From Escherichia coli (GTDB taxonomy: Bacteria > Pseudomonadota > Gammaproteobacteria > Enterobacterales > Enterobacteriaceae): 64,000 bases of DNA. The translations under genes were made by a program, and so were the position numbers. The notes beneath the pieces were generated by a model. That model did not search any database. It had not been told where the DNA came from and worked only from the letters and a program-made list of their open reading frames with translations. Below, piece by piece: positions 2,421 through 47,331 of this stretch. Location: the NCBI RefSeq assembly GCF_003018115.1, contig NZ_CP027457.1; one strand, given 5' to 3'. How positions within the stretch are numbered: the stretch's first letter is position 1; each line of letters starts with the position of its first letter.

Positions 2421-3809
2421 TCAGATCCGGTCTTTCCACACCGTCTGGATATTACAGAATTCGTGTAAGCCGAAATGGGAAAGCTCACGACCAAAGCCAC
2501 TCTTTTTCACGCCACCAAAGGCCACTCGCGCGTCGCTGGCACAATAACCATTGATAAACACCCCACCGCATTCCAGACGTGCCGCCATCTGTCTGGCCTG
2601 TGTTTCGTCGGTGGTAAAAATGGTCGCTGAAAGGCCGAACTCACTATCATTAGCCAGTTCCAGCGCATGTTCTGCATCTTTCGCAATGGTGATTGCCGCA
2701 ACGGGGCCAAACATTTCTTCCCGAAACGCGGTCATTTCTGGGGTAACATTCGCCAGAACCGTTGGCGGATAGTAGTTACCTGCCCCAGCCATCTTTTCCC
2801 CGCCCAGTAACAAACGCGCACCCTGCGCCAGGGTTTTCTCCACCTGATGATGCAGCTCATCACGTAAATCAAAACGAGCCATTGGTCCGAGAGTGTTCTC
2901 TTCGTCACGGGGATCGCCCATTTTCAAGGCTGCCGCAGCTGCCACAAAACGTTCGGTAAATGCAGAAGCAATTCCCTCTTCGATAATAAAGCGTTTTGCC
3001 GCTGCACATACCTGTCCGGTATTCTGATAACGTCCGGCTACCGCCGCTTTAACCGCCAGTTCCAGATCGGCATCGTTAAGCACAATAAATGGATCCGAAC
3101 CGCCCAGTTCCAGTACGCATTTTTTCAGTGCCGCTCCAGCCTGTGCGCCAATAGCCGCTCCCGCACGAACACTTCCGGTCACCGTGACAGCAGCAATGCG
3201 CGAATCTTTAATCATTTGGCTGACACCGTCGTTGTCGGCATTCAGCCAGCCATATACGCCTTGTGGGATTCCCGCATCTTTAAACACCTGGGCAATGAGC
3301 TGAGCACAGCCCATCACATTCGGCGCATGTTTAAGTAAGTAACCGTTACCTGCAAGAATGATGGGAACAGCGCCACGCATCACCTGCCATAACGGAAAAT
3401 TCCACGGCATAATCGCCAGAATCGTCCCCAACGGTCGATACTCAATAACCGCCTGCTGATTTTCCACCAGCGTAGGTTCCGCCTTCAGCATTGCCGGACC
3501 ATGTTCTGCATACCAGTCACACAAATTCGCCGATTTCGCCACTTCAGCGCGCGCCTGGTTGATTGGTTTGCCCATTTCACGGGTGATCATTTGCGCCATT
3601 TCTTCGCTACGGGCGCGCAGAGCCTTACCGATATCACGCAGTTTTTCAGCACGATAATCTATATTTGTCTCGCGCCAGTCGCGAAAGCCTGCTGCCGCCA
3701 GCTGAAGTGCGTTTTCGATATCATCAGCACCAGCCCACGGCAGCACAGAAAGTTGTTCACCCGTGGCAGGATTTATCGAAATTGCATGAGTTGCCGGAGT
3801 AATGGTCAT
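2421..3809 (-). CDS. sad: NAD-dependent succinate-semialdehyde dehydrogenase
   Basis: 462-aa aldehyde dehydrogenase family ORF (catalytic Cys context QVCAAAKRF, ELGG motif); synteny with glsB and yneJ. Confidence 0.9.
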   Translation of the reverse strand: MTITPATHAISINPATGEQLSVLPWAGADDIENALQLAAAGFRDWRETNIDYRAEKLRDIGKALRARSEEMAQMITREMGKPINQARAEVAKSANLCDWYAEHGPAMLKAEPTLVENQQAVIEYRPLGTILAIMPWNFPLWQVMRGAVPIILAGNGYLLKHAPNVMGCAQLIAQVFKDAGIPQGVYGWLNADNDGVSQMIKDSRIAAVTVTGSVRAGAAIGAQAGAALKKCVLELGGSDPFIVLNDADLELAVKAAVAGRYQNTGQVCAAAKRFIIEEGIASAFTERFVAAAAALKMGDPRDEENTLGPMARFDLRDELHHQVEKTLAQGARLLLGGEKMAGAGNYYPPTVLANVTPEMTAFREEMFGPVAAITIAKDAEHALELANDSEFGLSATIFTTDETQARQMAARLECGGVFINGYCASDARVAFGGVKKSGFGRELSHFGLHEFCNIQTVWKDRI

Positions 3810-4868: not shown

Positions 4869-5984
4869 ATGGTTACGCCAGTAAGCATCAGCAATTACAT
4901 ATCTCTTCCTGATGATTTTCCCGTTCATAATATTGCACCGCAGGTAAAAGAAGTTTTAAAGGATTTTATTGATGCACTTAGTACAATAATATGTAATGAA
5001 GAGTGGCGCACATCTTTAAACATCAACTCAGCCACAAAAAAGATATTTAATAACCTTGACAACTTATCATATATTCAGAGGACTTCTTTTCGGGGTAACG
5101 ACACGCTATACAATGAAAAGGTTCAGTTTAAACTCACTTATCCCGCCAGGAATGGAAGACACAAAGAAAATATTGAATTTCAGGTAGTAATAAATTTAAG
5201 CCCTATTTATTTAGATAATTTCCGCCATGATGGAGAAATTAATATTTTTTGCGCTCCCAACCCAAAGCCTGTCACTATGGGGCGCGTATTTCAGACCGGC
5301 GTCGAGCGTGTGCTCTTTCTGTTTCTTAATGATTTTATTGAACAATTTCCAATGATCAACCCTGGCGTCCCCATCAAAAGAGCGCATACACCACATATTG
5401 AACCCCTGCCTCCGGATCACCATACCGCTGCAGATTACTTACGCCAGTTTGATTTGCTTGTCCTGAATTTTATCTCTCGCGGTAATTTTGTCATACTTCC
5501 CCGATTATGGAATAACTCTGAGGTTCACAGATGGTTCGTCAATAAAGATCCTAACTTGATCACCGCCATTTTCGACATAACGGACAGCGAATTAAAAGAG
5601 GATTTATTGCAAAGCCTGATGGATTCATTAGGTTCTAACAAACATGTACTACCCGAAGTCTGCATCTGCTTTTTATCCCTTTTAGCAGAACAAGATTTTC
5701 CACATTTTCAGGACTTGTTTTTATTTTTCGCCAATATGTTGTTACACTATCACCAATTTATGAATCCCAATGAAAGTGATTTGAATGACGTGTTGATGCC
5801 AGCATCATTAAGTGATGATAAAATTATCAAACATATGGCGCGCAAGACCCTCAAACTTTTTGTAAAAAATGAAACGCCGCCAAAAGTTACTCATGAAGAC
5901 CTGGTGAAAAACAGGCCTCGCTCCCCTGTCAGACCACCTATACCCGCAACCTCCAAAACGCCAGACCTCCCTGAACGTCATTAA
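4869..5984 (+). CDS. yneK: Uncharacterised protein YneK
   Basis: 371-aa ORF, AT-rich codon usage, position between yneJ and ydeA. Confidence 0.8.
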   Translation: MVTPVSISNYISLPDDFPVHNIAPQVKEVLKDFIDALSTIICNEEWRTSLNINSATKKIFNNLDNLSYIQRTSFRGNDTLYNEKVQFKLTYPARNGRHKENIEFQVVINLSPIYLDNFRHDGEINIFCAPNPKPVTMGRVFQTGVERVLFLFLNDFIEQFPMINPGVPIKRAHTPHIEPLPPDHHTAADYLRQFDLLVLNFISRGNFVILPRLWNNSEVHRWFVNKDPNLITAIFDITDSELKEDLLQSLMDSLGSNKHVLPEVCICFLSLLAEQDFPHFQDLFLFFANMLLHYHQFMNPNESDLNDVLMPASLSDDKIIKHMARKTLKLFVKNETPPKVTHEDLVKNRPRSPVRPPIPATSKTPDLPERH

Positions 5985-9312: not shown

Positions 9313-9368
9313 TTATTGTCAGGCTCTGATCACAGAGCCTGACATCTCCGTAATATCTTCCTGAAGTC

Positions 9369-12515
<3,147 letters not shown>

Positions 12516-12561
12516 TTAAGAGTGTAATAGTTTCCTCCAGCTAACGCACTGGAGGAAAAAT

Positions 12562-12879
12562 TCAGGCATGGAGTTCTTTTCTTAATGAAATAATTTCCCT
12601 GGCTAAATCCTGGCATAACATCGCATTCATCAAATGATCCTGTGCATGTACCAGAATTAAATTAACTTTTATTTTGCCACAGCCTTCATCCTGACTAATT
12701 AACGCGGTCTGAATCTTATGTGCCTGAAGACAGGCAGATTCAGAACTGGCCATTAGCTGAGTTGCGCCCTGCCAGTCTTTTTTCCCGGCACAACGTATGG
12801 CTTCCATCGCATCAGAACGAGCCTGTCCCGCGTTGACCAGTAACTCCATAACAAGTTCTTCATCTGCAAACATCAACAT
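12562..12879 (-). CDS. PTS EIIA component, lactose/cellobiose family
   Basis: 105-aa ORF with conserved His context (LILVHAQDHLM) typical of ChbA-like EIIA. Confidence 0.85.
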   Translation of the reverse strand: MLMFADEELVMELLVNAGQARSDAMEAIRCAGKKDWQGATQLMASSESACLQAHKIQTALISQDEGCGKIKVNLILVHAQDHLMNAMLCQDLAREIISLRKELHA

Positions 12880-12900
12880 CTCCTTTCTGTGTGAATGGGA

Positions 12901-14223
12901 TTATCCGTTAGTTGTTAAGTTATTGACCTTGTTGGCGGCAATAACAAAAGGTAAATAGATCATTGTCGCCACACCTAAACATAAAAAACCAACCAGTAAC
13001 GCCAGCCAGTTTCCCCCGGTTCCGAGGAAAGCAATTAAAGGTCCGGGCGTAGTCCAGGGCACGGCATAAGCAACCGGTGGAATAATTTCCATCGAAACAA
13101 AGAAGTAACCAATGGCACAGTTAACAATGGGAACCAGAATAAACGGCACCATCATAATGGGGTTAAGTACAATAGGAAGGCCGAACATTATCGGTTCATT
13201 GATATTGAAAATACCGGGGATAAATGACATTTTTGCCAGATCACGGTATTCCGCACGCTTAGATGCGATAAAAATAGCCAACAATAACCCCAACGTCATA
13301 CCTGAACCGCCGCAGTTGGCGAATGCATCATTAATAGAAGTCCAGGTAATCGGATATGGCGCGCCCCAGGTAGTGCCGTGTTGAGCGGCCCAGGAGAGAT
13401 TCTCCAGATTAGCCTCAGAAAAAACGGTTTCTCGAATTGCCGACGTGGTATTAGGTCCGTGGATCCCCAGCACCCAGAGGAAATTACCCACAGCCCCCAG
13501 GATAATTACCGCAAAGATATTCGTTCCCATATGTTTGAGCGGCGTCTGGATTAATGTGTAAATGAGATCGTTTAATCCTGCCGGGGATATCAGTGTCAGG
13601 CAATAATTAAGTGTGGAAAAGAACACCATAACAAAAAATATTGGCAATAAAACTTTAAATGAACGCGCTACCGCAGGAGGTACAGCTGCCGGCATCGTTA
13701 TGGTGATTTTTGGGTTTCGAGCTAAGCGACAAAATATTTCACTGGTGATCAATGCAACGATAACAGCAACAAACAACCCCTGCGCGCCGAGATATTTGGT
13801 CGTCAGGAATGCTTGTCCTTCTATCATCTGATATGGTGTATAAACAATAAAAAATGCTCCTATTGCCGTTAATCCGCATAAAAGATCATCTTGCTCATAG
13901 CTAATCGCCATATTTCTGGCGACCAGGAAAGCAATCATAATTGACATGATATTTACAGAACCATTCATTACCGGAGTAAAAATAGCTTGTGCTTTTTCAA
14001 GGTTGGGGAAAATGCTGTTCAGATGCAGTAATCCGGCAATAAAACCGTCTGGCGATAATATGGCAAAGTTAATTAATATAATTAATGAACTTGCCATGAT
14101 AATTGGAAACGTAAAAACGAATCCATCTCTCACCGCTGCAACATGTTTTTGTGAGTTTAACTTGATAGCAACTGGAACAAGAAAACGTTCCATTCCACGT
14201 TCGAATGAGGCCATTAATCCCAT
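12901..14223 (-). CDS. PTS EIIC permease, lactose/cellobiose family
   Basis: 440-aa polytopic membrane protein at the ChbC-like position between EIIB and EIIA. Confidence 0.85.
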   Translation of the reverse strand: MGLMASFERGMERFLVPVAIKLNSQKHVAAVRDGFVFTFPIIMASSLIILINFAILSPDGFIAGLLHLNSIFPNLEKAQAIFTPVMNGSVNIMSIMIAFLVARNMAISYEQDDLLCGLTAIGAFFIVYTPYQMIEGQAFLTTKYLGAQGLFVAVIVALITSEIFCRLARNPKITITMPAAVPPAVARSFKVLLPIFFVMVFFSTLNYCLTLISPAGLNDLIYTLIQTPLKHMGTNIFAVIILGAVGNFLWVLGIHGPNTTSAIRETVFSEANLENLSWAAQHGTTWGAPYPITWTSINDAFANCGGSGMTLGLLLAIFIASKRAEYRDLAKMSFIPGIFNINEPIMFGLPIVLNPIMMVPFILVPIVNCAIGYFFVSMEIIPPVAYAVPWTTPGPLIAFLGTGGNWLALLVGFLCLGVATMIYLPFVIAANKVNNLTTNG

Positions 14224-14336
14224 TTTTTATACCTGCTGTTCTGGATATTTATACATCCCAATAAAGCATGTATGCCATATCCATTTTATGATGTGTGAAA
14301 AGTTAGTTCAGGTAATAGTTTAATAATATTAGATTC

Positions 14337-14648
14337 TTACTCTTGCAGTAGTTTCATCGCAAATTCAAGAACTGCCTGTCCGTTCATGGTGCCATAGTCT
14401 TTCATCTCGATAACGGATACAGGCATTTTCCCCTGTGCAACGGCTTCAATCTCCGGTTTCTGAAAGCGAACTTGCGGGCCAAGTAAAACAACGTCAACTT
14501 CGTTATTTTTAATTTTCCCTTTAGCCTCTGCAATCGCCAATGCGGAAATATTAACTTCAAGTGAAATAGCGTTAGCATGATCAATCATACGTTTAACCAG
14601 CATACTGGTTGACATGCCCGCAGCGCAAACTAACAATATCTTTTTCAT
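14337..14648 (-). CDS. PTS EIIB component, lactose/cellobiose family
   Basis: 103-aa ORF with active-site Cys context (LLVCAAGMSTSMLV). Confidence 0.85.
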   Translation of the reverse strand: MKKILLVCAAGMSTSMLVKRMIDHANAISLEVNISALAIAEAKGKIKNNEVDVVLLGPQVRFQKPEIEAVAQGKMPVSVIEMKDYGTMNGQAVLEFAMKLLQE

Positions 14649-14846
14649 ATTTTCCCTTACTGGTATATAACAGACTACATTGTGTAAATATCATATCCCG
14701 CAGTAGCTATACATCCTGGTACATTGATCACAGTAATACAGTAATAAAGTTGTTCAACATCAGGGTGTTAATTAAACGACTCGGCCATACGATAAACCAA
14801 TCAGGACTCAACCCCTTGTTTTCAATGGCTCTTAAAAGGTGCAAAA

Positions 14847-15545
14847 GTGATTTTTCAAAAGATTGCCCGCTTACTTAAATCCGAGATCAATGGCTATTCA
14901 TGGCATGTTGGTGATTTGTTGCCATCAGAAGCTGAACTCGCAGTTCGTTATAATGTTTCGCGTAATACCCTGCGTAAGGCATTATCCTTGCTGGAAGGCG
15001 AAGGAATTATTCACAGAAAGCATGGTTCAGGAACATACATTCAAAAAAAGAATTTTGTTGCACACATTGATCACATGAACAGTTTCAGTGAAATTGCGCA
15101 TAAAAGCGGCAAAGAGGCAGGGAGTCAGATTATGAAATTTGAAGTGCAGGATGCTTCACCTACTATTGCGACTGAGCTGAATTTAGTAACTGGTGAGCAG
15201 GTTTATTACATAAAGAGACTGCGATTCATTGAGGATAATGCAGCACAATTAGAAGAAACGTGGATGTCAGTGGCACGTTTTCCTGATTTAACCGTAGCAC
15301 ATATGCAAAAATCCAAATTTTCGTATATTGAGAACGAATGCGGGATCAAAATCATTGGCACCTTTGAAACTTTCTCCCCTACTTTTCCTACCCCAGAAAT
15401 CGCCAGTATTTTACGGATCAGCCCACGGGATCCCATACTTAAAATTCAGACCCAGGCTGTGGACAGTAACTCTGTTCCGCTGGATTATTCGTTACTTTAC
15501 AGCAATATTTTCGAGTTCCAGGTAAAGTACTTTTTCCCGCGATAA
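14847..15545 (+). CDS. GntR/HutC-family transcriptional regulator, divergent from the PTS operon (GTG start in track)
   Basis: N-terminal GntR winged HTH (SEAELAVRYNVSRNTLRKALSLLEGEGII) plus UTRA-like C-terminal domain. Confidence 0.8.
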   Translation: MIFQKIARLLKSEINGYSWHVGDLLPSEAELAVRYNVSRNTLRKALSLLEGEGIIHRKHGSGTYIQKKNFVAHIDHMNSFSEIAHKSGKEAGSQIMKFEVQDASPTIATELNLVTGEQVYYIKRLRFIEDNAAQLEETWMSVARFPDLTVAHMQKSKFSYIENECGIKIIGTFETFSPTFPTPEIASILRISPRDPILKIQTQAVDSNSVPLDYSLLYSNIFEFQVKYFFPR

Positions 15546-15588
15546 AGCAGACGCACAGAGTGCTGACATCACATTCTGTGCGTATGGT

Positions 15589-16488
15589 TTAGCCTCTAAC
15601 CTTTACCGCTTTACGCCACCGCAAGCCAAATACATTGATATACAGCCCGGTCATAATGAGCACCGCACCGAAAAATTGCAGACCCGTTAAGCGTTCATCC
15701 AACAATAGTGCCGCACTTGCCAGTCCGACTACAGGCACCAGTAACGATAACGGTGCAACCCGCCAGGTTTCATAGCGTCCAAGTAGTGTTCCCCAGATCC
15801 CATAACCAACAATTGTCGCCACAAAAGCCAGATACATCAGAGACAAGATAGTGGTCATATCGATAGTGACCAGACTGTGAATCATGGTTGCGGAACCATC
15901 GAGAATCAGCGAGGCAACAAAGAAGGGAATGATTGGGATTAATGCGCTCCAGATTACCAGCGACATCACCGCCGGACGCGTTGCGTGCGACATGATCTTT
16001 TTATTGAAGATGTTGCCACACGCCCAACTAAATGCTGCCGCCAGGGTCAACATAAAGCCGAGCATCGCCACATGCTGACCGTTCAGACTATCTTCGATTA
16101 ACACCAGTACGCCAAAAATCGCTAAGGCGATCCCCGCCAATTGTTTGCCATGCAGTCGCTCCCCGAAAGTAAACGCGCCAAGCACGATAGTAAAAAACGC
16201 CTGTGCCTGTAACACCAGCGAAGCCAGTCCAGCAGGCATACCAAAATTAATGGCGCAGAACAGAAAGGCAAACTGCGCAAAACTGATGGTTAATCCATAC
16301 CCCAGCAGCAAATTCAGTGGTACTTTCGGTCGTGCGACAAAAAAGATGGCCGGAAAAGCGACCAGCATAAAGCGCAAACCGGCCAGCATCAGCGGTGGCA
16401 TGTTATGAAGCCCCACTTTGATGACCACAAAATTTAGCCCCCATACGACCACTACCAGTATCGCCAACACCCCATCTTTTCGCGACAT
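15589..16488 (-). CDS. eamA: Cysteine/O-acetylserine exporter (DMT family)
   Basis: MSRKDGVLAILVVVVWGLNFVVIKVGL... 299 aa from internal ATG of the 306-aa ORF; two EamA repeats. Confidence 0.9.
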   Translation of the reverse strand: MSRKDGVLAILVVVVWGLNFVVIKVGLHNMPPLMLAGLRFMLVAFPAIFFVARPKVPLNLLLGYGLTISFAQFAFLFCAINFGMPAGLASLVLQAQAFFTIVLGAFTFGERLHGKQLAGIALAIFGVLVLIEDSLNGQHVAMLGFMLTLAAAFSWACGNIFNKKIMSHATRPAVMSLVIWSALIPIIPFFVASLILDGSATMIHSLVTIDMTTILSLMYLAFVATIVGYGIWGTLLGRYETWRVAPLSLLVPVVGLASAALLLDERLTGLQFFGAVLIMTGLYINVFGLRWRKAVKVRG

Positions 16489-29908: not shown

Positions 29909-30142
29909 ATGAAATCAAAAGACACCCTAAAGTGGTTCCCTGCGCAGCTTCCTGAAGTAAGAATTATCCTAGGGGATGCTGTAGTGGAAGTAGCAAAACA
30001 GGGAAGACCTATCAATACCAGAACATTGCTTGATTACATTGAAGGAAACATAAAGAAAAAATCATGGCTGGATAACAAAGAATTATTACAAACAGCGATA
30101 TCAGTTCTTAAAGACAACCAAAATTTAAATGGTAAAATGTAA
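29909..30142 (+). CDS. ydfK: Qin prophage small protein YdfK (YnaE paralogue)
   Basis: MKSKDTLKWFPAQLPEVRIILGDAVVEVAKQGRP...; 77 aa from internal ATG of the 88-aa ORF. Confidence 0.8.
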   Translation: MKSKDTLKWFPAQLPEVRIILGDAVVEVAKQGRPINTRTLLDYIEGNIKKKSWLDNKELLQTAISVLKDNQNLNGKM

Positions 30143-30458: not shown

Positions 30459-31049
30459 ATGTCTCAAATTTTTGCTTACTGTCGGATATCAACGCTGGAT
30501 CAGACCACCGAAAATCAACGCCGGGAAATCGAAAGTGCAGGTTTTAAAATCAAACCTCAGCAAATAATCGAAGAACACATTAGCGGCTCAGCAGCAACCA
30601 GTGAGCGTCCTGGTTTTAACCGGTTGCTTGCTCGCCTGAAATGTGGTGATCAATTGATTGTGACAAAACTGGATCGCCTTGGTTGTAATGCAATGGATAT
30701 CAGGAAAACAGTGGAACAACTGACCGAAACAGGTATCAGAGTGCATTGCTTAGCATTGGGGGGCATTGACCTGACCAGTCCAACAGGAAAAATGATGATG
30801 CAAGTAATTTCAGCAGTCGCTGAATTTGAACGAGACCTTTTACTTGAACGCACTCATTCCGGGATAGTAAGAGCCCGCGGCGCAGGGAAACGTTTTGGTC
30901 GACCACCTGTGTTAAATGAAGAACAGAAACAGGCGGTATTCGAACGAATTAAGTCAGGTGTAAGTATAAGTGCCATTGCCCGGGAATTCAAAACCTCGCG
31001 GCAAACCATTTTAAGAGCCAAAGCAAAACTTCAGACACCTGACATATAA
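30459..31049 (+). CDS. pinQ: Serine-recombinase DNA invertase (Pin/Gin/Hin family)
   Basis: 196-aa ORF with N-terminal resolvase catalytic domain (YCRISTLDQ, active-site Ser) and C-terminal HTH. Confidence 0.9.
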
Positions 31050-31146
31050 AAAATAATCTCGGTGTGAGATGCTTTACGTCTTCCAAGCCCCCTTCCTTGC
31101 CGTAAATGGAAAGATACATCTAATTATAGAATTTATATGTTTTACC

Positions 31147-31722
31147 CTACGGCAGTGCTGGCCATTCAATATCCTGTGCAGTTGACGTATCAACACGGTT
31201 CAGCAATACCCGATACTTTTTCCATGCTTCCAGCAACGAGATTTCTTCCTCCGTTGCAATTTCCAGATCTGCAGCATCCTGAAGCGGCGCAATATGCTCA
31301 CTGGCTACCTGCATCAGGTTGTTTTTTGTTTCTTCCGCCTCCCGGATCCGGAACAGTTTTTCTGCTTCCGTATCCTTCACCCAGGCTGTGCCGTTCCACT
31401 TCTGAAACTCCCCTTCCGGCGATAACCAGGTAACATTTTCCGGTAACGGACCGAGTTCAGAAATAAATAACGCGTCGCCGGAAGCCACGTCATAAACCGT
31501 TTTACCCCGATGATCTTCAACGAGATGCCACGATGACTCATCACTGTTGAAAACAGCCACGAAGCCAGCCGGAATATCTGGCGGTGCAATATCGGTACTG
31601 TTTGCTGGCAGACCTGTATGAGGCGGAATATATGCATCACCTTCACCAATAAATTCATTAGTTCCGGCCAGCAGATTATAAATTTTTATGGTCCGTGGTT
31701 GTTCACTCATTCTGAATGCCAT
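31147..31722 (-). CDS. tfaQ: Tail fibre assembly protein
   Basis: 191-aa [37 protein letters not shown]...; start overlaps stf stop. Confidence 0.9.
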
Positions 31723-34700
31723 TATGCAAGCCTCACAATATAGTTAAATGCGATGTTTTTGACGGTGTTTTCCGCGTTACCAGCAGCGTTAACGGTGATG
31801 GTGTGTCCATGTGAACCAATCGCAACGGAGTGCGTATGAGCACCAATACCGACAGTATGTGCATGTGCGCCTGCGCTTGCAGCAGTGCCGGACAGCGAGT
31901 GGGTATGAGCACCATCTGATGATGTCTTCCCTGCATTACGAGTCTGGCCACTACCGCTTGTTGTGCTCATAATCCCCGCGCTTAGATTTGAAATCGCGGT
32001 ATAACCATTAGGGAAAATGCTCGTGTTCGTGCCACCAAATGCACCGGAACTCTTGTGTTGGTGCGCACCGGCACTATTTGCGGTCCCGCTAATACTATGG
32101 GTATGCGCCCCGGTGTTATTCGTGGATTTGGTTCCGTAATCAAACGACGATGTGGTTTTCGTCCCCAAATCCGTACTGGATGCGCTGGCGCTGTGGGTGT
32201 GCGATTTAATGCCGTCCTGTTCCTGAGATAATACGGCCCGACCACTGGCGGGCTTGCCCTTAATCGTCCAGCCACGCATATCAGGGATCACGCCTGACGG
32301 ATAAGCAACTGCAAGTTTCGGGTATGCAGATTTGTCAAAAGTCTGCCCCTGCATCAGGGCATAACCAGACGGAACGGTATCTGATGGCCACGGGATTGGT
32401 GCACCGACTGGATAAAACTCTGCAGGAGGATGAGCCGAGGTGTAAAGCTGCGCCCACGGCGACCAGTTTGCGTCGGTCGTATCCCGTCGTGAACGAATAA
32501 ATGCCGGAGCATGAGCACCGCTTGTACCACTCCAGCCGATGAGTAACTCACCTTCGCCAACGGCTGTCATCCCTTTCAGGTGAATGATATTTCCATACGC
32601 TGTTGGATATCCGTTGTTATACACCTCGTATAACTCAAGACCTGCTGCCCCCTGCGTATTGTCTGTCAGCGCGGTTACCCGACCTTTTGAAGCCAGATTA
32701 ACTGATGATACTGCTGTTCCACCTGACGGTAACGCCCCGATCTCTGATGCCGTTGGCTTATTTCTGGAGTTATAGTCCCTTCGCCAGCCAGGTGAATAAT
32801 CTGTTCCGTGATTAATATAGGTAAACTGGGCGTTAGTTGTTCCACCACCAGTGGAGGTGGTCGGTGTGGTAATGCGGATCGTCATCGCTGACTTTATCCC
32901 CATTACTTCAATGACAGCTCCGGCGAGATGAATATTACCGCAGTCAGTATCAGTAATGATTTTATTATTGCCATAAGACCAGGAACCCTTGCACATCCAG
33001 TATGGATGGTTAAATGCTCCCTGAGAATCCAGCCACTCGATAAACTGTGCAGTCGTCCAGTTTCCTGTTGTTGTGCTTACTGACCCACCGAAGGCACGGC
33101 AGGCACCAATATTTTTCGTAAAGGTATCTTTGCCAGGGATATCCGCACCGTTCTGATCTTTCTGCAGACGTTTCTCAGCATTGTCATTGGCTGCTTTTAC
33201 TGCCTTTGGTGTCGCGGCAAGCGTTTCAGACGTGCTGTTGGTCGCGCTGCTTAGCTGGATTATCCCTTTCTGTGCTGTCGTTGCATCCTGTGCGGTGTAT
33301 TTCCCGTTAGCCAGGTCATACGCGGCCTTAACGGCTTTTGGTGTTGCCGCCAGTGACTCGGAAGTGCTGTTAGTCGCACTACTGAGCTGTACTATCCCCT
33401 TTTTCGTCGTGCTCGCATCCTCAAGCGCCACGGCGGATGCAATATCCTCTGCCCGTTTTGCTGCTGTCTCGGCGCGCGTTGCTGCGGATTCTGCCGTACT
33501 TTTGCTCTGAGCTGCCGCCGTCGCACTGCCAGCAGCCTCTGTCGCCTTCGTGGATGCCGTCGTGGCGCTGCTCTTCGCTGCTGACGCTTGTCTGGTCGCC
33601 TCATCTTTTGAAGCAGACGCCGATGATGCCGATGACGCCGCCGAACTGGCTGACGATGCGGCAGCCGTTTTTGAGGATTCTGCGCTGGTTTCCGACGCTT
33701 TCGCGTTCGTTTCGGATGTCTTCGCTGCGGAAGCAGACCTCGCTGCTGCGCTGGCCTGTTCAGTGGCTTCGCCAGCCTTCGTTGTGGCTGTTGAAGCAGA
33801 CGATGCGGCGCTTTCTGCCGATTTTCCGGCGGCGGTGGCACTGGCTGAGGCCTGCCCGGCACTTGTTGACGCTGCACTGGCAGACGACGCAGCCGCTGTT
33901 TTTGAGCCTGCCGCAGCCGAGGCGCTCTGTCCCGCTGCCGTTTCAGAAGACCTGGCGTTCGTCTCTGACGTTTTTGCCGCCTTCGCGGAATTTCCTGCCG
34001 CTGTTGCCGAGGAAGCTGCGCTACTGGCGCTCGAGGATGCGTTCGTTTCTGATGATTTTGCCGCCTCTTTTGAAGCCGACGCATCCCGGGCTGAGGTGGC
34101 AGCTTCTGACGCTTTCGTGGTCGCGGTGGATGCAGAAGTGGCTGCTGATTGTTGTGACGCTGCAGCATTCGTTTCTGACGTTTTCGCGGCACTGGCACTG
34201 GTAGCTGCCGCGCTTTTTGAGGACTCTGCAGCGGCAGCACTTTTTGATGCTTCAGTGGCCTTTGTTGATGCCGTTCCTGCGCTGGAAGACGCTGACTGAG
34301 CCGACGAAGCGGCCTGTCCGGCTGACGTGCTGGCTGCGCGTGCTGAGCCTGCAGCATCAGTCGCATGGGTTGCCGCCTCACGGGCAGATGTGCCGGCATC
34401 GCCGGCTGACTTCTTCGCGGCTGCCGTGTTCTGTGCCACCGCGGACGCGTTACGCGCCACCTCTTCCACCATCAGTTCAAAACGGCGCAGAGCCTCCGGA
34501 CGGGCATCATCCTCCGTCATGGCACCGAGAAAATCATTCAGCGTACCGGGTCGGGAATCTTCATACACGGTGATGGTCCCGGCATGTGACGGCGGGAATC
34601 CTTCCACCAACAGAATAACGCTGTACTGACCGTACTCAACGTCCATGCTGTAACGCCCGGCTTCATCCGGATTTTCTGAGGCCAGCGTGTTCACCACCAC

Positions 34701-34796
34701 CGCGGTGCTGTTACGTTTTGCTTTCAGCTGGATTGTGCAGTTCTGTACCGGTTTTCCTGTGCCGTCTTTCAGTACACCTGAAATCTTTACTGCCAT
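31722..34796 (-). CDS. stf: Side tail fibre protein, lambda Stf-like, full length (about 1024 aa)
   Basis: N-terminus [26 protein letters not shown]... and C-terminus ...[24 protein letters not shown] match my recollection of lambda Stf; track start is a GTG two codons upstream of the ATG. Long Ala/Ser/Thr-rich central repeats; His-x-His motifs near C-terminus. Confidence 0.9.
33180..34330. repeat. Low-complexity Ala/Ser/Thr-rich coding repeats inside stf (GC-rich, open in several frames)
   Basis: Reiterated ...SAA(S/T)SA.../KTSETNA units and duplicated [15 protein letters not shown](S/T)[11 protein letters not shown] block; generates spurious ORFs on both strands. Confidence 0.8.
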
Positions 34797-34805
34797 ATTC
34801 ACCCC

Positions 34806-34833
34806 ACAAAAAAGCCCGCCTGAACAGGCGGGC
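34806..34833 (-). terminator. Rho-independent terminator downstream of lom
   Basis: Hairpin GCCCGCC-TGTTCA-GGCGGGC followed by a T-run on the minus strand. Confidence 0.6.
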
Positions 34834-34860
34834 TGTCATAACACTGTGTTACCTGGCTAA

Positions 34861-35460
34861 TCAGAACTTATAACCGACACCCACGATGAAACCGTCAGTG
34901 CGCCAGTCGCCACTGCCGGAGCCTTCATAAGCAATATCAATGGCCACGGATTCGGTCGGGTTAAACTGCACGCCAGCTCCCCACGCCAGAGACGTGTTGC
35001 TGTGGCGACCGTCATCACTTCCGGTCAGCACGTCGTGCGTTTTCCCCTTGTTGTCAGTTACGCGGAGATAATCCCCGGAGAAAGTCGACACACGGCTGTA
35101 AGCCATACCCGCCATCGCATACGCGCTGAACCATTCATTCACGCGCACAGACGGCCCCACCATCACGCTGAACCAGCGGTTACGCACGGAATCTTCATGC
35201 CAGCGGGTATCGCTGTAACGGGTAAGCTGGCGATTCTTGTCTCCTGCATAGCTGAATGACGTCACCAGCCCCAGTGTGTCCGTAAACTCATAACGGTATT
35301 TCACGTTAATCCCGTTAAGATCATCGCTGCCGGGAACGTTCGTCGAGGCATGAAGATACCCCGCGCTCAGCGTGGACTGATGTTCAGATGCCCATGCAGG
35401 CGCACCGGATACGGCCAGACAAATGGCTGCGGACAAAATGGCGGCATAAAGTTTACGCAT
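34861..35460 (-). CDS. lom: Lom/Ail-family outer-membrane beta-barrel protein
   Basis: 199-aa ORF with signal peptide and C-terminal ...[15 protein letters not shown] as in lambda Lom. Confidence 0.9.
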
Positions 35461-35484
35461 AATTACCTCTCGCTTTTCTGCAAT

Positions 35485-35508
35485 AAAAAAGGCACCATTT
35501 CTGGTGCC
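35485..35508 (-). terminator. Rho-independent terminator downstream of J
   Basis: Hairpin GGCACCA-GAAA-TGGTGCC followed by a T-run on the minus strand. Confidence 0.55.
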
Positions 35509-35529
35509 CTTATATGGGTTATAACAATT

Positions 35530-38500
35530 TCAACGAATACTGATGCCGGAAGCGGCTTTTTTGGTCACAATCACCGTACAGTCGGTGATATTGCCTGCCC
35601 CCTGATTGCCTTTCTGGAAAATCTTAAACTCCAGAGTGACGCTACCACCACCACTAGGCATATCAATAACTGCACTGTAACTACCGGGAATGGCCCCTTT
35701 AGTTTCTCTGGATGCGATTAATACGCCGTTTTTGCGAACTTCAAAACCATAACCCGTGTATCGCGTGCCTCCTGGGTTATTTCCGCTCCCCGGATCGTCA
35801 TACGCTATACCGTTAAAAATAATGGGCGGAATAATAATCTGGCGGTCAAAGTTATGATCATCGCTGATGGTGACTGTAACCGTACCGTTTGGTGTTTCCG
35901 TGTTACCCCACGTACCGACTTTTTTCGGGAAGGCTTTTGATACAGCTTTAACGAAATCCCCTCTGACCTGGGTCGCCTCCAGCATGCCCTTAATCGTACA
36001 GTTCTGGTTAATCGTGACATTGTTGAGCGTTCCTGAGTTCGCATTCACACTACCACTGATATCCGCATTTTTAGCGGTCAGCTTTCCGTCTGATGTCAGG
36101 GAAAATACCGGAGGACTGCCACCGCTGGTAATGGTGGGGGCCGTCAGGCGTTTCAGGAACACTTCATTCATGAATATCTGATCGCCCTGACCAACAAACA
36201 TCGGCTTTGTGTTGCCATTCGCAGGATTAATCATCGCAATCCTGTCTGCTGCCAGCAGCACCTGACTCTGCATGCCGTCAGGGGTGTTCTCAATACCGGC
36301 ACCGATACCCGCAATATAAAGGCGTCCGTCCTGCATCTGCTGCAGCTTCACTGCCCACATGCTGTTCAGGTTATTATTTGTATCAACCTGAACCTTCTGT
36401 ATCTGCTGGATTGCCGCACTCTGGTCTTCCAGTTTCTTATTGACGGTCTGTGTTATTTCATTGCTGACATCCGTTATGGACGTCCTGATTTCAGTCAGGT
36501 CAGGCGCAAGCTGACCGTTATCAATCTGCGTCCACAGCTCCTGAGCCAGATGGGTTTTCCCTATCTCGCCTTTGAAAAAATCCAGATAGCCTGATGCATC
36601 ATCACTCGGCTGACCGACAGCCTCCACGAATGCCGATTTGCCAACGGTGTTCACACTGCGAACGTAAAAATAATAATCATGGCCCGGTTTGATATTGATA
36701 CTGGCGGCTATCCAGTACAGTGCCGTACCAAGATAACGCGCGCTGGTTTCAACCTGCCTGATATCCGCAATCCGTTTTTCCGAGAACCAGAACTCAAACT
36801 GTACCGTCGGGTCATAAACCGCAAGATGCGGCGTGGCGGTTATCTGAAAATAGCCCGGCGTCAGCTCAATCCGCGACGGCGCTGCCGGTGCGGCAATCCG
36901 GAACGATACCGACGCCGGATCGCCCTGCTGCCCCCACGCATTTACTGCCCGGACTGTCAGCCTGTAGTTCCCCAGAGCCAGTTGTGTGAAGCGGTAAGTG
37001 GTTTCCGTCGTCCGGGCCGTGCTGACCAGCCGCTCACGGCCGTCATCCGCTGCCACGGTCAGGCGAAGCAGGAAGCTCACGCCCTTCACCACCTTCGGCG
37101 TGTCCCAGCGCGCCAGCACCTGGTATTCCCCGCTGTCTGCGGTGACTTCTGCGGTCAGGTGCTGCACCGCTGGCGGCGTGACACCATTTACCGTGCCGCT
37201 CTGGTCGCCGTCAAAGTGCGCCCCGTTATCCACGATGGCCTCTTTTTCCGGTACATGCTGCACGGCGGTGATGGCATACGTGCCGTCGTCGTTCTCACGG
37301 ATACTCACGCAGCGGAACAGGCGCTGGCGCAACGTCGACAGCTTCAGCCCCCATACGCTGTATTCAGCAACGCCGTCAGGAACACGGCTCACTTTCACCT
37401 TCACGCCGTCGGTGACGGACTGAACCTCCACGCTGACCGGACTCCCCTGCCCGTCAACCAGGCTTATCAGCGTGGTGCCGGAAGATGGCAGCGTGATTTC
37501 ACGGTCGAGCGTCAGCGTCCGGGTCTGGCTGTTTACCGCCAGCACGCGCCCGCCGGTGCGGATACCGGCATAGTCATCATCGCAGATTTCAATGACATCG
37601 CCCGGTACATGGCGAAGCCCTTCGGCACCCACGCTGAAGTCCACGGTCTGCGTTTCCAGCAGTTCTGTTTTAATCAGCCACAGCCCGGCGCGGTGTGCCT
37701 GCCCCCGGCTGGTACAGCCAAAAGCATCCATCTTCGTGACGTTACGACCGTAACGGGCAATGGCCTGCGTGTCCTCCACAAGCTCTGTCGCCGTCTCCCA
37801 GCCGTTATTCGGGTCAATCCAGTTCACCTCAACGGCATTATGGCGGTCCTTCAGGGCGCTGAAGCTGTAGCGGAACGGCGCACCATCATCCGGCATCACC
37901 ACATTACTGCGGTTATAGGTCCACACCTTATCCGACGGTCGGTCCTGCACGAACGTCAGCGTCTGCCCGTTCCATACCGGCATACAGCGCATCGCAGAGC
38001 AGAAATCACTGAGCACATCCCACGCCTTGCGCTGTGTGGTCAGGTACGCATTACAGGTGATGCGCGGCTCTGTGCCGCCAAAACCGTCCGGCACCGACTG
38101 ATCGCAATGCTGGCCGATGACATACAGCGCCCATTTGTCCACATCCGCCGCACCAAGACGTTTCCCCATGCCGTAGCGCGGATGGGTCAGCATATCCCAC
38201 AGACACCAGGCCATGTTGTTGCTGTATGCTGGCTTAAACGTTCCGTCCCAGATACCGCTGTATTGCCGCGTCTGCGGGTTATAGTTCGACGGCACCTGCA
38301 GAATGCGCCCGCGCAGATGATAATTACGGCTCACCTGCTGGCTGCCGAACTGCTCCGAATCCACCTGCACGCCGACCAGTGCCGTGTTCGGGTAGCACTG
38401 TTTCACATCGATGATTTCGGTGTATGACGACCAGAGCGTTTTGTTCTGCAGCTGGTCTGTGGTGCTGTCCGGCGTCATCCTGCGCATCCGTATATTGAAC

Positions 38501-39027
38501 GGGCGCGGCGGCAGGTTACCCACCACCACCGAGGCCAGATACTGCGAGGTGGTTTTGCCCTTAATGGTGATGTCTTTTTCCGTCACCCAGCCACCATTAC
38601 GCTGGATCTGAACCAGCAGGCGGACTTCCGACGGATTCCGGTCCCCCTTTGAGGTGGTTTCCACCAGTGCCTGCACGCCGAAGGTAAAGCGCAGACGGTC
38701 GATGTTTGCAGACGTAATGGTGCGGGTGATCGGCGTGTCATATTTCACTTCCGTACCCAGCACCGTCTCGGAGCCGGAGGATTCAAACCCCTCCGGCGGT
38801 GTCTGCTCCTGCTCACCGGCACGGAACACCACCGTGACACCGGAGATGTTGGTATTCCCCTCAGTGTCCAGCACCGGCGTACTGTTCAGCAGCACGCTTT
38901 TTAATCCATCCACCGGACCTTCAACCGGCCCTTCGCTGATGGCATCGATCACACTCAGCAGCTGCGTGGACTTCAGGTTGTCCTTCGCTTCGCGCGGGGT
39001 ATGCCCCTTACTGCTGCCTTTACCCAT
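35530..39027 (-). CDS. J: Tail tip host-specificity protein J (1165 aa), lambda J-like with divergent C-terminal region
   Basis: N-terminal about 790 aa match my recollection of lambda J ([34 protein letters not shown]...); central fibre and last roughly 250 aa differ. Confidence 0.9.
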
Positions 39028-39087
39028 TCCTCACGCTCCATAAATGACAAAACCGCCCGCAGGCGGTTTCACATAAAACATTTTGCA

Positions 39088-39759
39088 TCAGCGACCAATC
39101 ACCACAACCTGACCACCGTCCCCTTCGTCTGCCGTGCTGATCTCCTGAGAAACCACGCGAGACCCCACGCGCATTTCCCCGTACAGAACAGGCAGAACAT
39201 TGCCCTGGGCAACCATGTTATCCAGTGAGGAGAAATAGGTGTTCTGCTTACCGTTATCCGTTGTCTGTGTACGGGGAGTTCTGGCTTTCGGTGCCAGCAT
39301 CTGCGCCACACCACCGAGCACCATACTGGCACCGAGAGAAAACAGGATGCCGGTCATACCACCGGTCCCAATGGCTGCCCCCCATGCTGCAAGGGTGGCT
39401 CCGGCGGTAAAGAATGATCCGGCAATGGCGGCAGCCCCCAGGACAATCTGGAATACGCCACCTGACTTGGCCCCGGCGACTCTGGGAACAATATGAATCA
39501 CAGCGCCATCAGGCAGAGTCTCATGTAACTGCGCCGTTAACCCGGACGTGCTGACGTCCCGCCCGGCAATCCGTACCTGATACCAGCCGTCGCTCAGTTT
39601 CTGACGAAACGCCGGGAGCTGTGTGGCCAGTGCCCGGATGGCTTCAGCCCCCGTTTTCACACGAAGGTCGATGCGGCGACCAAATCGTTGTAAATCCCCG
39701 TAAAGGCAGATGCGCGCCATGCCCGGTGACGCCAGAGGGAGTGTGTGCGTCGCTGCCAT
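39088..39759 (-). CDS. I: Tail assembly protein I
   Basis: 223-aa ORF, lambda I length; overlaps K 3' end. Confidence 0.9.
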   Translation of the reverse strand: MAATHTLPLASPGMARICLYGDLQRFGRRIDLRVKTGAEAIRALATQLPAFRQKLSDGWYQVRIAGRDVSTSGLTAQLHETLPDGAVIHIVPRVAGAKSGGVFQIVLGAAAIAGSFFTAGATLAAWGAAIGTGGMTGILFSLGASMVLGGVAQMLAPKARTPRTQTTDNGKQNTYFSSLDNMVAQGNVLPVLYGEMRVGSRVVSQEISTADEGDGGQVVVIGR

Positions 39760-46932: not shown

Positions 46933-47331
46933 TTATTGCATTCTGGCCAGGCCGCGCTCTGTCATTTCGGCTGCCACACCGGCAGAGACACGAAACGCCG
47001 TTCCCGGCAGCACAAATGCCACAGGTTCATCCCGCGTGGCGTGAAGTGCATCAGTATGCAGCTTCACCAGTGCCACGACCGTGACCAGTTCAGACGTATC
47101 CAGAATCACGGTATCCGGCTGCGCTGATCCCACCTCATTTTCATGTCCGGTCAGCACATTTTCCCGGCTGAGAGGGGTGTCCTGACCGGCAGTTTCATCC
47201 GTGTCATCAAGCTCCTCTTCCAGCTCTGCCACACGGAGCGCCAGTTCTTCTTTCGTCCCCGTCAGGCTGACATCACGGTTCAGTTGTTCACCCAGCGAGC
47301 GGAGACGGGCAATCAGTTCATCTTTCGTCAT
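46933..47331 (-). CDS. FI: DNA-packaging protein FI
   Basis: MTKDELIARLRSLGEQLNRDVSLTG...; 132 aa from internal ATG of the 145-aa ORF. Confidence 0.85.
   Translation of the reverse strand: MTKDELIARLRSLGEQLNRDVSLTGTKEELALRVAELEEELDDTDETAGQDTPLSRENVLTGHENEVGSAQPDTVILDTSELVTVVALVKLHTDALHATRDEPVAFVLPGTAFRVSAGVAAEMTERGLARMQ

Follow-up and report, generated by a model that had tools for sequence, protein, structure and literature searches.

The window, a 64,000-nucleotide stretch of Escherichia coli contig NZ_CP027457.1, carries a J gene that follows that of phage lambda closely for most of its length and then departs from it, which raises the questions of whether this gene is a mosaic, how such a mosaic came about, and which receptor its product would recognize. 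Our results indicate that J is very likely a three-module mosaic generated by recombination, with a phage 434-type receptor-binding domain (RBD) predicted to dock OmpC. The J reading frame runs uninterrupted over 1165 codons, with 0 internal stops, and is a 100% nucleotide match to a RefSeq gene annotated as gpJ (WP_000515714.1). Six gpJ-specific or tail Pfam families scored above their curated cut-offs and in the expected order (Table 1), which identifies the product as a lambda-type gpJ; residues 819-871 were covered by no model in this Pfam search of J. The lambda gpJ chains in PDB entries 8iyk and 9e7m match residues 1-836 (E = 0), and PDB matches to the C-terminal part of J had E values of 1e-85 to 1e-94. 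According to the ORF list and the RefSeq annotation of an identical locus, a lambda-like tail operon surrounds the gene in the order H, M, L, K, I, J, lom, stf and tfa, placing J between an I-like assembly gene and lom/stf as expected of a lambda-type J. The lom gene also comes after J in lambda, and phage 434 has an annotated terminator at the site equivalent to the hairpin that follows J in the window. A repeat scan of window positions 31000-39100 returned no tandem repeat relevant to J. Beside pinQ, a candidate invertible tail-fibre segment was considered and rejected as not convincing, with one weak 20-nt inverted repeat that is 80% complementary.

Table 1. Features of J and of the adjoining genes, with positions in J (aa or nt as stated) and in the window.
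Feature	Position in J	Window position	Strand	Description
J, tail tip attachment / central tail fibre protein		35530..39027	minus	Complete ORF, 3498 nt, 1165 aa
Pfam FNIII-A_GpJ	aa 86-207
Pfam Phage-tail_3	aa 330-498
Pfam Ig_J	aa 610-714
Pfam Ig_J_second	aa 716-818
Pfam Phage_Tail_Tip	aa 872-1000
Pfam Ig_GpJ_C	aa 1029-1164			"C-terminal receptor binding domain"
Module 1, lambda-type body	aa 1-805	36613..39027	minus	Hub domains and two FNIII/Ig domains; lambda 98.0% aa, 95.8% nt; 434 97.9% aa
Junction A (into module 2)	nt ~2400-2460	~36630-36570
Module 2, long alpha-helical shaft and upper central-fibre cassette	aa 806-945	36193..36612	minus	Unlike both lambda and 434
28 extra residues relative to lambda and 434	within aa 836-866	36430..36522	minus	Alignment gaps of 21 + 7 aa
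Junction B (into 434-like tract)	nt ~2850-2910	~36180-36120
Conserved linker (lower beta-prism fibre), 57 aa	aa 946-1002	36022..36192	minus	Lambda 88% aa, 91% nt; 434 95% aa
Module 3, 434-type RBD and stop codon	aa 1003-1165	35530..36021	minus	Lambda 37% aa, 48% nt; 434 97.5% aa, 98.8% nt
Terminator-like hairpin		35488..35511	minus	Consensus scan only: 10-pair stem then T run, directly 3' of J stop codon
lom (Ail/Lom outer-membrane protein)		34861..35460	minus	Pfam Ail_Lom E 1e-119; annotated so in 100%-identical RefSeq locus
Side tail fibre gene		31722-34802		1026 aa
Tail fibre assembly gene		31147-31722
Pin-type invertase		30459-31049

We compared J with lambda J (NC_001416 15505-18903, 1132 aa, NP_040600) and with 434 J (OL657226 CPT_434_21, 1137 aa) by formal protein and DNA alignment. 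Counted per 30 nt, matches to lambda number 26-30 up to J nt 2430 and 25 at nt 2431-2460, and then fall to 20, 6 and 0 over 90 nt (window ~36567-36478), with 0/30 reached by nt 2521-2550. Identity to lambda is back to 27-30/30 at nt 2851-3000, except for one 30-nt interval at 25, and drops again from nt ~3001 (window ~36027). A tract identical to 434 at 29-30/30 nt runs continuously from nt ~2881 to the stop codon, and the 98.8% nucleotide identity of the RBD to 434 was measured over nt 3011-3498. Module 2 resembles neither reference, with 41% aa and 52% nt identity to lambda, and 41-42% aa and 52-53% nt for lambda and 434 together; a single cassette of about 450 nt (nt ~2430-2850), carrying the long shaft, is what separates J of the window from 434 J.

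The initial annotation had described J as tracking lambda for about 790 residues and then diverging in the central fibre segment and the last roughly 250 residues, with one recombination breakpoint inside the gene. The close tracking is borne out, but it extends over ~805 residues (98.0% aa), and the divergence comes in two blocks split by the conserved 57 aa, the terminal one comprising ~163 residues; the interval singled out at the time, 35530-36600, falls in the 3' third of the gene and encloses both. The figure of ~250 may derive from the 249-aa lambda J fragment of the classical LamB-binding experiment (PMC3509688). Instead of one breakpoint, we found abrupt changes at no fewer than two junctions, three when lambda is the reference, delimiting blocks that other phages share at an identity of at least 98%. 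High identity to lambda across the entire C-terminus, which would have spoken against a mosaic, was not observed on formal alignment, and the donor type for the C-terminus, sought in phage and E. coli nucleotide collections, was that of phage 434.

The modules of J assort independently among related phages (Table 2). All four combinations of a short or long shaft with a 434-type or other RBD were found on one lambda-type body, and the 434-type RBD occurs also on bodies just 73-82% identical to that of the window. The long shaft cassette is 97-100% identical at the amino acid level in 1H12, ev017, cdtI and Stx2_EH1846, has comparable long counterparts in more distantly related J proteins (BP-4795, 2851 and PhiR12_2), and was matched by 168 of the 252 records with any J match in the phage collection; the short version, found in lambda, 434 and mEp460, thus seems to be the less frequent one. 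Three discrete families of RBD can be told apart, namely the lambda type, the 434 type and the A8/1H12/BP-4795 type, with identities of 95-100% inside families versus 36-46% across them. The RBD of the window belongs to the second of these, being near-identical to that of 434 J and distinct from the lambda and A8 types.

Table 2. Amino acid identity (%) of J modules in other phages to those of the window.
Phage	Body	Shaft cassette	Linker	RBD
Lambda	98	41	88	37
434	98	42	95	97.5
mEp460	98	40	91	95
1H12	98	98.6	86	43
ev017	98	97	88	43
cdtI	98	98	91	95
Stx2_EH1846	82	100	89.5	100
2851	73	59	79	98.8
BP-4795	73	59	70	45

With its sharp transitions and with cassettes that assort independently among relatives, J is an intragenic mosaic. 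Given that the transitions are abrupt (30-60 nt) and lie inside conserved stretches, homologous recombination accounts for this structure, and drift does not. We infer that an intact lambdoid tail-tip J was assembled from three separately exchangeable modules (body, long shaft/upper fibre, and 434-type RBD), which would have been joined when lambdoid (pro)phages that resided together in a cell or co-infected it underwent homologous recombination, with crossovers in the conserved stretches flanking each variable cassette, with the conserved beta-prism linker (aa 946-1002) connecting modules 2 and 3. Partial matches to the divergent region in 5426 complete E. coli genomes end at query nt 423 (J nt ~2820) and at query nt 633-644 (J nt ~3035), and these break points are both edges of the linker. 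Module assortment and breaks at the linker edges fit homologous recombination in conserved flanks, and thereby exclude divergence in situ.

That the C-terminal differences instead reflect accelerated point mutation in situ under host-range selection, as in the evolution of lambda toward OmpF, with no exchange of segments, has a precedent in that lambda J is known to shift its receptor via C-terminal point mutations (PMC11101478; generalist lambda, PMC13190303). We regard this as extremely improbable for J of the window, where identity to lambda goes from 26-30/30 to 0/30 within about 120 nt, multi-codon indels are present, G+C content changes from 0.59 to 0.49 (0.594 in the first 2400 nt of J versus 0.494 in the remainder), and phages that differ in other blocks carry each divergent block at 98-100% identity. 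The sharp drop, the indels, the G+C shift and the sharing of blocks together go beyond what point mutation can produce.

J of the window belongs to the more frequent J alleles in nature. The full-length allele, at 95.0-99.4% nucleotide identity over 100% of its length, was present in 54 phage records at an identity of at least 95%, including those of phiSTEC1575-Stx2k, vB_EcoS-569R4, PhiR42_1, ev243, Kati, PhiR34_1, PhiR68_2, mEp332, ev099, Ayreon, phi458 and cdtI; in the isolated phages PhiR42_1, vB_EcoS-569R4 and phiSTEC1575-Stx2k, identity was 98.5-99.4%. When we counted complete E. coli genomes in which the C-terminal combination was covered at 80% or more, the long shaft, linker and 434-type RBD were found in 1163 of 5426. 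The C-terminal combination of lambda itself was covered in 95 of 5426, in all cases at an identity of at least 99%. These 95 genomes may come from lysogens of lambda or from laboratory strains of the DE3 type, and the one fully listed genome among them is a laboratory K-12 strain. Given that the allele of the window is about 12 times commoner than that of lambda, lambda is the unusual one: the C-terminus does differ from that of lambda, as the initial annotation had it, but calling it "replaced" reflects the choice of lambda as reference, whose own J C-terminus is the one seldom seen in lambdoid prophages of E. coli.

The divergence of module 3 bears directly on receptor choice. Over the last 157 aa, the RBD is 97% identical to 434, 37% to lambda and 42% to A8, for which the sequence was taken from PDB 9wca. 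Relative to lambda, it has four indels (+2, +6, +1 and -6 residues), each of which falls in a predicted loop, and these four loops presumably contact the receptor; the sequence identity expected of the LamB-binding RBD of lambda, receptor-contact loops included, was absent. The receptor of phage 434 is given as OmpC, in the form of a secondary citation, in three papers (PMC11101478, PMC3509688, PMC12502783), two of which add that lambda with the 434 J gene switches from LamB to OmpC. Given this literature and an RBD 97.5% identical in amino acids to that of 434, as compared with 37% for lambda, the receptor of J is likely OmpC and not LamB, a sequence-based prediction that agrees with the different receptor specificity proposed at the outset. 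Lambda particles have been redirected to OmpC by fusing C-termini from natural gpJ proteins at lambda aa 964 (Brodel et al., PMC11338833), and this graft point, equivalent to about aa 992 of J in the window, falls inside the conserved linker of J. In an AlphaFold2 (AF2) model, the RBD had pLDDT values of 65-94, and its best Foldseek matches were 8xck, 9wca, 8xcj and 9wcb, which are lambda and A8 gpJ central fibres and include the A8-OmpC complex (9wcb); together with the Pfam match to Ig_GpJ_C, this indicates a shared fold.

The mosaic could be real and the RBD nevertheless recognize a receptor other than OmpC, or only certain OmpC alleles, whether through its four substitutions relative to 434 (N1047D, I1136V, Q1138H and G1143R) or through an altered triggering by the longer shaft. 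Two of these substitutions lie in predicted loops, the OmpC-binding gpJ chimeras A8 and 1A2 differ in the OmpC variants they accept (PMC11338833), and Gifsy-1 J binds OmpC, OmpX and BtuB. We nonetheless consider such a deviation quite unlikely, given the 97.5% amino acid identity to 434, the spread of this RBD at 95-100% identity over many phages propagated on K-12 or ECOR13, and our finding no link between the 434-type RBD family and another receptor. Our literature search found no receptor data for phages with a J of this type, including mEp332 and the PhiR phages, and J is not discussed in PMC9836094. A receptor-prediction preprint treats the gpJ of Drexlerviridae, not lambdoid J.

Window positions 31000-39100 are 100% identical to a region in E. 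coli CFS3246 and in many other strains, where the identical locus is a prophage at the Qin locus, flanked by ydfJ, ydfK, pinQ and tfaQ on one side and by nohA, ynfO, ydfO, gnsB, cspI, rzpQ and rrrQ on the other; the regulatory half of the prophage lies beyond the end of the window. Qin is a defective prophage in K-12. J could be a non-functional relic of a decaying cryptic prophage, and the mosaic without present biological consequence, a reading in line with the position of the element at this locus and with the IS3 insertion that several other genomes have in this tail region. It is unlikely in our view, given that the copy in the window matched genomes in single-piece hits and has no IS element, that the 1165-codon reading frame is uninterrupted, that the annotation of the 100%-identical locus has all head and tail genes intact, from nohA and terminase through to tfa, and that plaque-forming phages carry near-identical J genes.

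For a functional J of this type, the course of events at the cell surface can be sketched by analogy with lambda. The alpha-helical shaft (AHS) of lambda comprises residues 809-861, and its helix bundle holds the FNIII domains in a clamp and, upon receptor binding, flips over to the fibre top. The trimeric tip of the window phage would dock on the porin OmpC instead of LamB. Binding would move the bases of the RBDs apart, the prism would twist and the shaft flip over, and the tip would open once the FNIII clamp lets go. The first divergent block of J (aa 806-945) corresponds to the AHS and the upper prism. Our AF2 monomer of aa 806-1165, computed from a 9-sequence alignment, had a mean pLDDT of 51.5, with the shaft and beta-prism below 50, and placed helices at aa 812-888 with low confidence, about 77 residues as compared with 53 in lambda. 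Low confidence in these parts is expected for an intertwined trimer, and only the RBD part of the model was used; the Foldseek rmsd over the full-length model is meaningless. No single register fits the heptads of the shaft, for which the best hydrophobic fraction at a/d positions was 0.41 versus 0.31 elsewhere.

The shaft of J would be half as long again as that of lambda, and this version is always co-transferred with the upper fibre that it would wrap. It is doubtful, though conceivable, that this long shaft/upper fibre cassette (+28 residues) is an independently exchanged functional module and not a neutral spacer. If it were functional, the longer shaft might shift the threshold for triggering or change how far the tip reaches (through O-antigen, for example), whichever receptor the RBD recognizes. 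A limited literature search returned no description of a natural dimorphism of two shaft lengths or of the upper prism being transferred along with it.

That a single tail fibre gene can be a mosaic is textbook knowledge, and the mosaic J itself is already known, the h434 host-range swap being classical and the allele being present many times in GenBank and RefSeq. Our analysis adds no new biology, and its practical bearing is on annotation: the host range of this prophage should be recorded with OmpC, not LamB, as the predicted receptor. The graft site with which lambda-derived delivery particles have already been given new targets lies in the linker between the two cassettes. The one point beyond this established picture is a possible role of the two natural shaft lengths in relaying receptor binding to tail opening.

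Among the closest known systems, phage 434 shares with the window the body (97.9%), the linker (95%), the RBD (97.5% aa, 98.8% nt) and the gene order J-terminator-lom-stf, and differs in the shaft/upper fibre cassette, where identity is 42% and the window has 28 additional residues, and in the four RBD substitutions. Lambda gpJ (PDB 8iyk, 8xck, 8xcj) has a body 98% identical to that of the window and the same domain order of hub, two FNIII domains, helical shaft, beta-prism fibre and Ig-like RBD, but its shaft cassette lacks 28 aa and shows 41% identity, its RBD is 37% identical, and it binds LamB. The J proteins of cdtI, Ayreon, mEp332, ev243, ev099, Kati, PhiR42_1, vB_EcoS-569R4 and phiSTEC1575-Stx2k consist of the same three modules as that of the window, with scattered substitutions only. 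The A8 gpJ chimera (PDB 9wca, and 9wcb with OmpC) likewise presents an Ig-like C-terminal domain on the same fibre and binds OmpC, although the RBD of A8, 1H12, ev017 and BP-4795 forms a separate family, 41-44% identical to that of the window, and two of these phages, 1H12 and ev017, share with the window its long shaft cassette.

The prophage in the window (~29000-64000) is located at the Qin locus and carries a full lambda-like head and tail gene set, extending from nohA/terminase to stf, the side tail fibre gene. Qin of K-12 is not known to have these structural genes; given their presence here, the window prophage appears to be related to Qin but without the deletion. In the compared locus of E. 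coli strain CFS3246, ~6.3 kb of the chromosomal flank (window 9314-15599) had no counterpart, and a ~57-nt junction in the head-gene region near gpFI (47257-47314) was also discontinuous in the alignment, while the two were collinear elsewhere.

Features of the prophage region (window coordinates)
Feature	Position	Strand	Remarks
Qin-locus genes	~29000-64000		ydfJ, ydfK, pinQ, tfaQ ... nohA, ynfO, ydfO, gnsB, cspI, rzpQ, rrrQ, essD
Pin-type serine invertase gene	30459-31049	+	adjoins tfa (tail fibre assembly gene) and stf
Side tail fibre protein	31722-34802	-	1026 aa
ORF antisense to J	36679-38427	+	582 aa; within the 60% G+C part of J

Of 5426 complete E. coli genomes, only 95 covered the lambda J C-terminus, comprising the shaft and LamB-binding part (4903-5904 of lambda sequence L001), at ≥80%, with identity of at least 99% in all 95. 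Among these genomes, natural prophages whose tip is of the LamB type thus seem to be rare. The ORF antisense to J is most likely a stop-codon-poor compositional artefact rather than a gene.

In at least eight complete genomes, including those of strains 6409, XJW9B263, and BN01, the 8.1-kb tail region equivalent to window 31000-39100 was present in two pieces with an annotated IS3-family transposase between them. No IS3-type insertion was present in the window copy of this region. Inverted repeats were also sought near the invertase gene, where no invertible tail-fibre segment was evident: the sole pair (29929-29948 and 30877-30896) was weak, being 20 nt long and 80% complementary, and does not flank the fibre genes on both sides.

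The side tail fibre protein contained an Ala/Ser/Thr-rich low-complexity stretch of ~400 aa, matched by a G+C content of ~0.6 and an AT skew reaching -0.43 at 33250-34250, as well as repeated His-rich motifs (GAHTHS/GAHAHT) in its C-terminal part. It is far longer than the side fibre of the lambdoid phage 434 (OL657226), whose gene spans 1314 nt.
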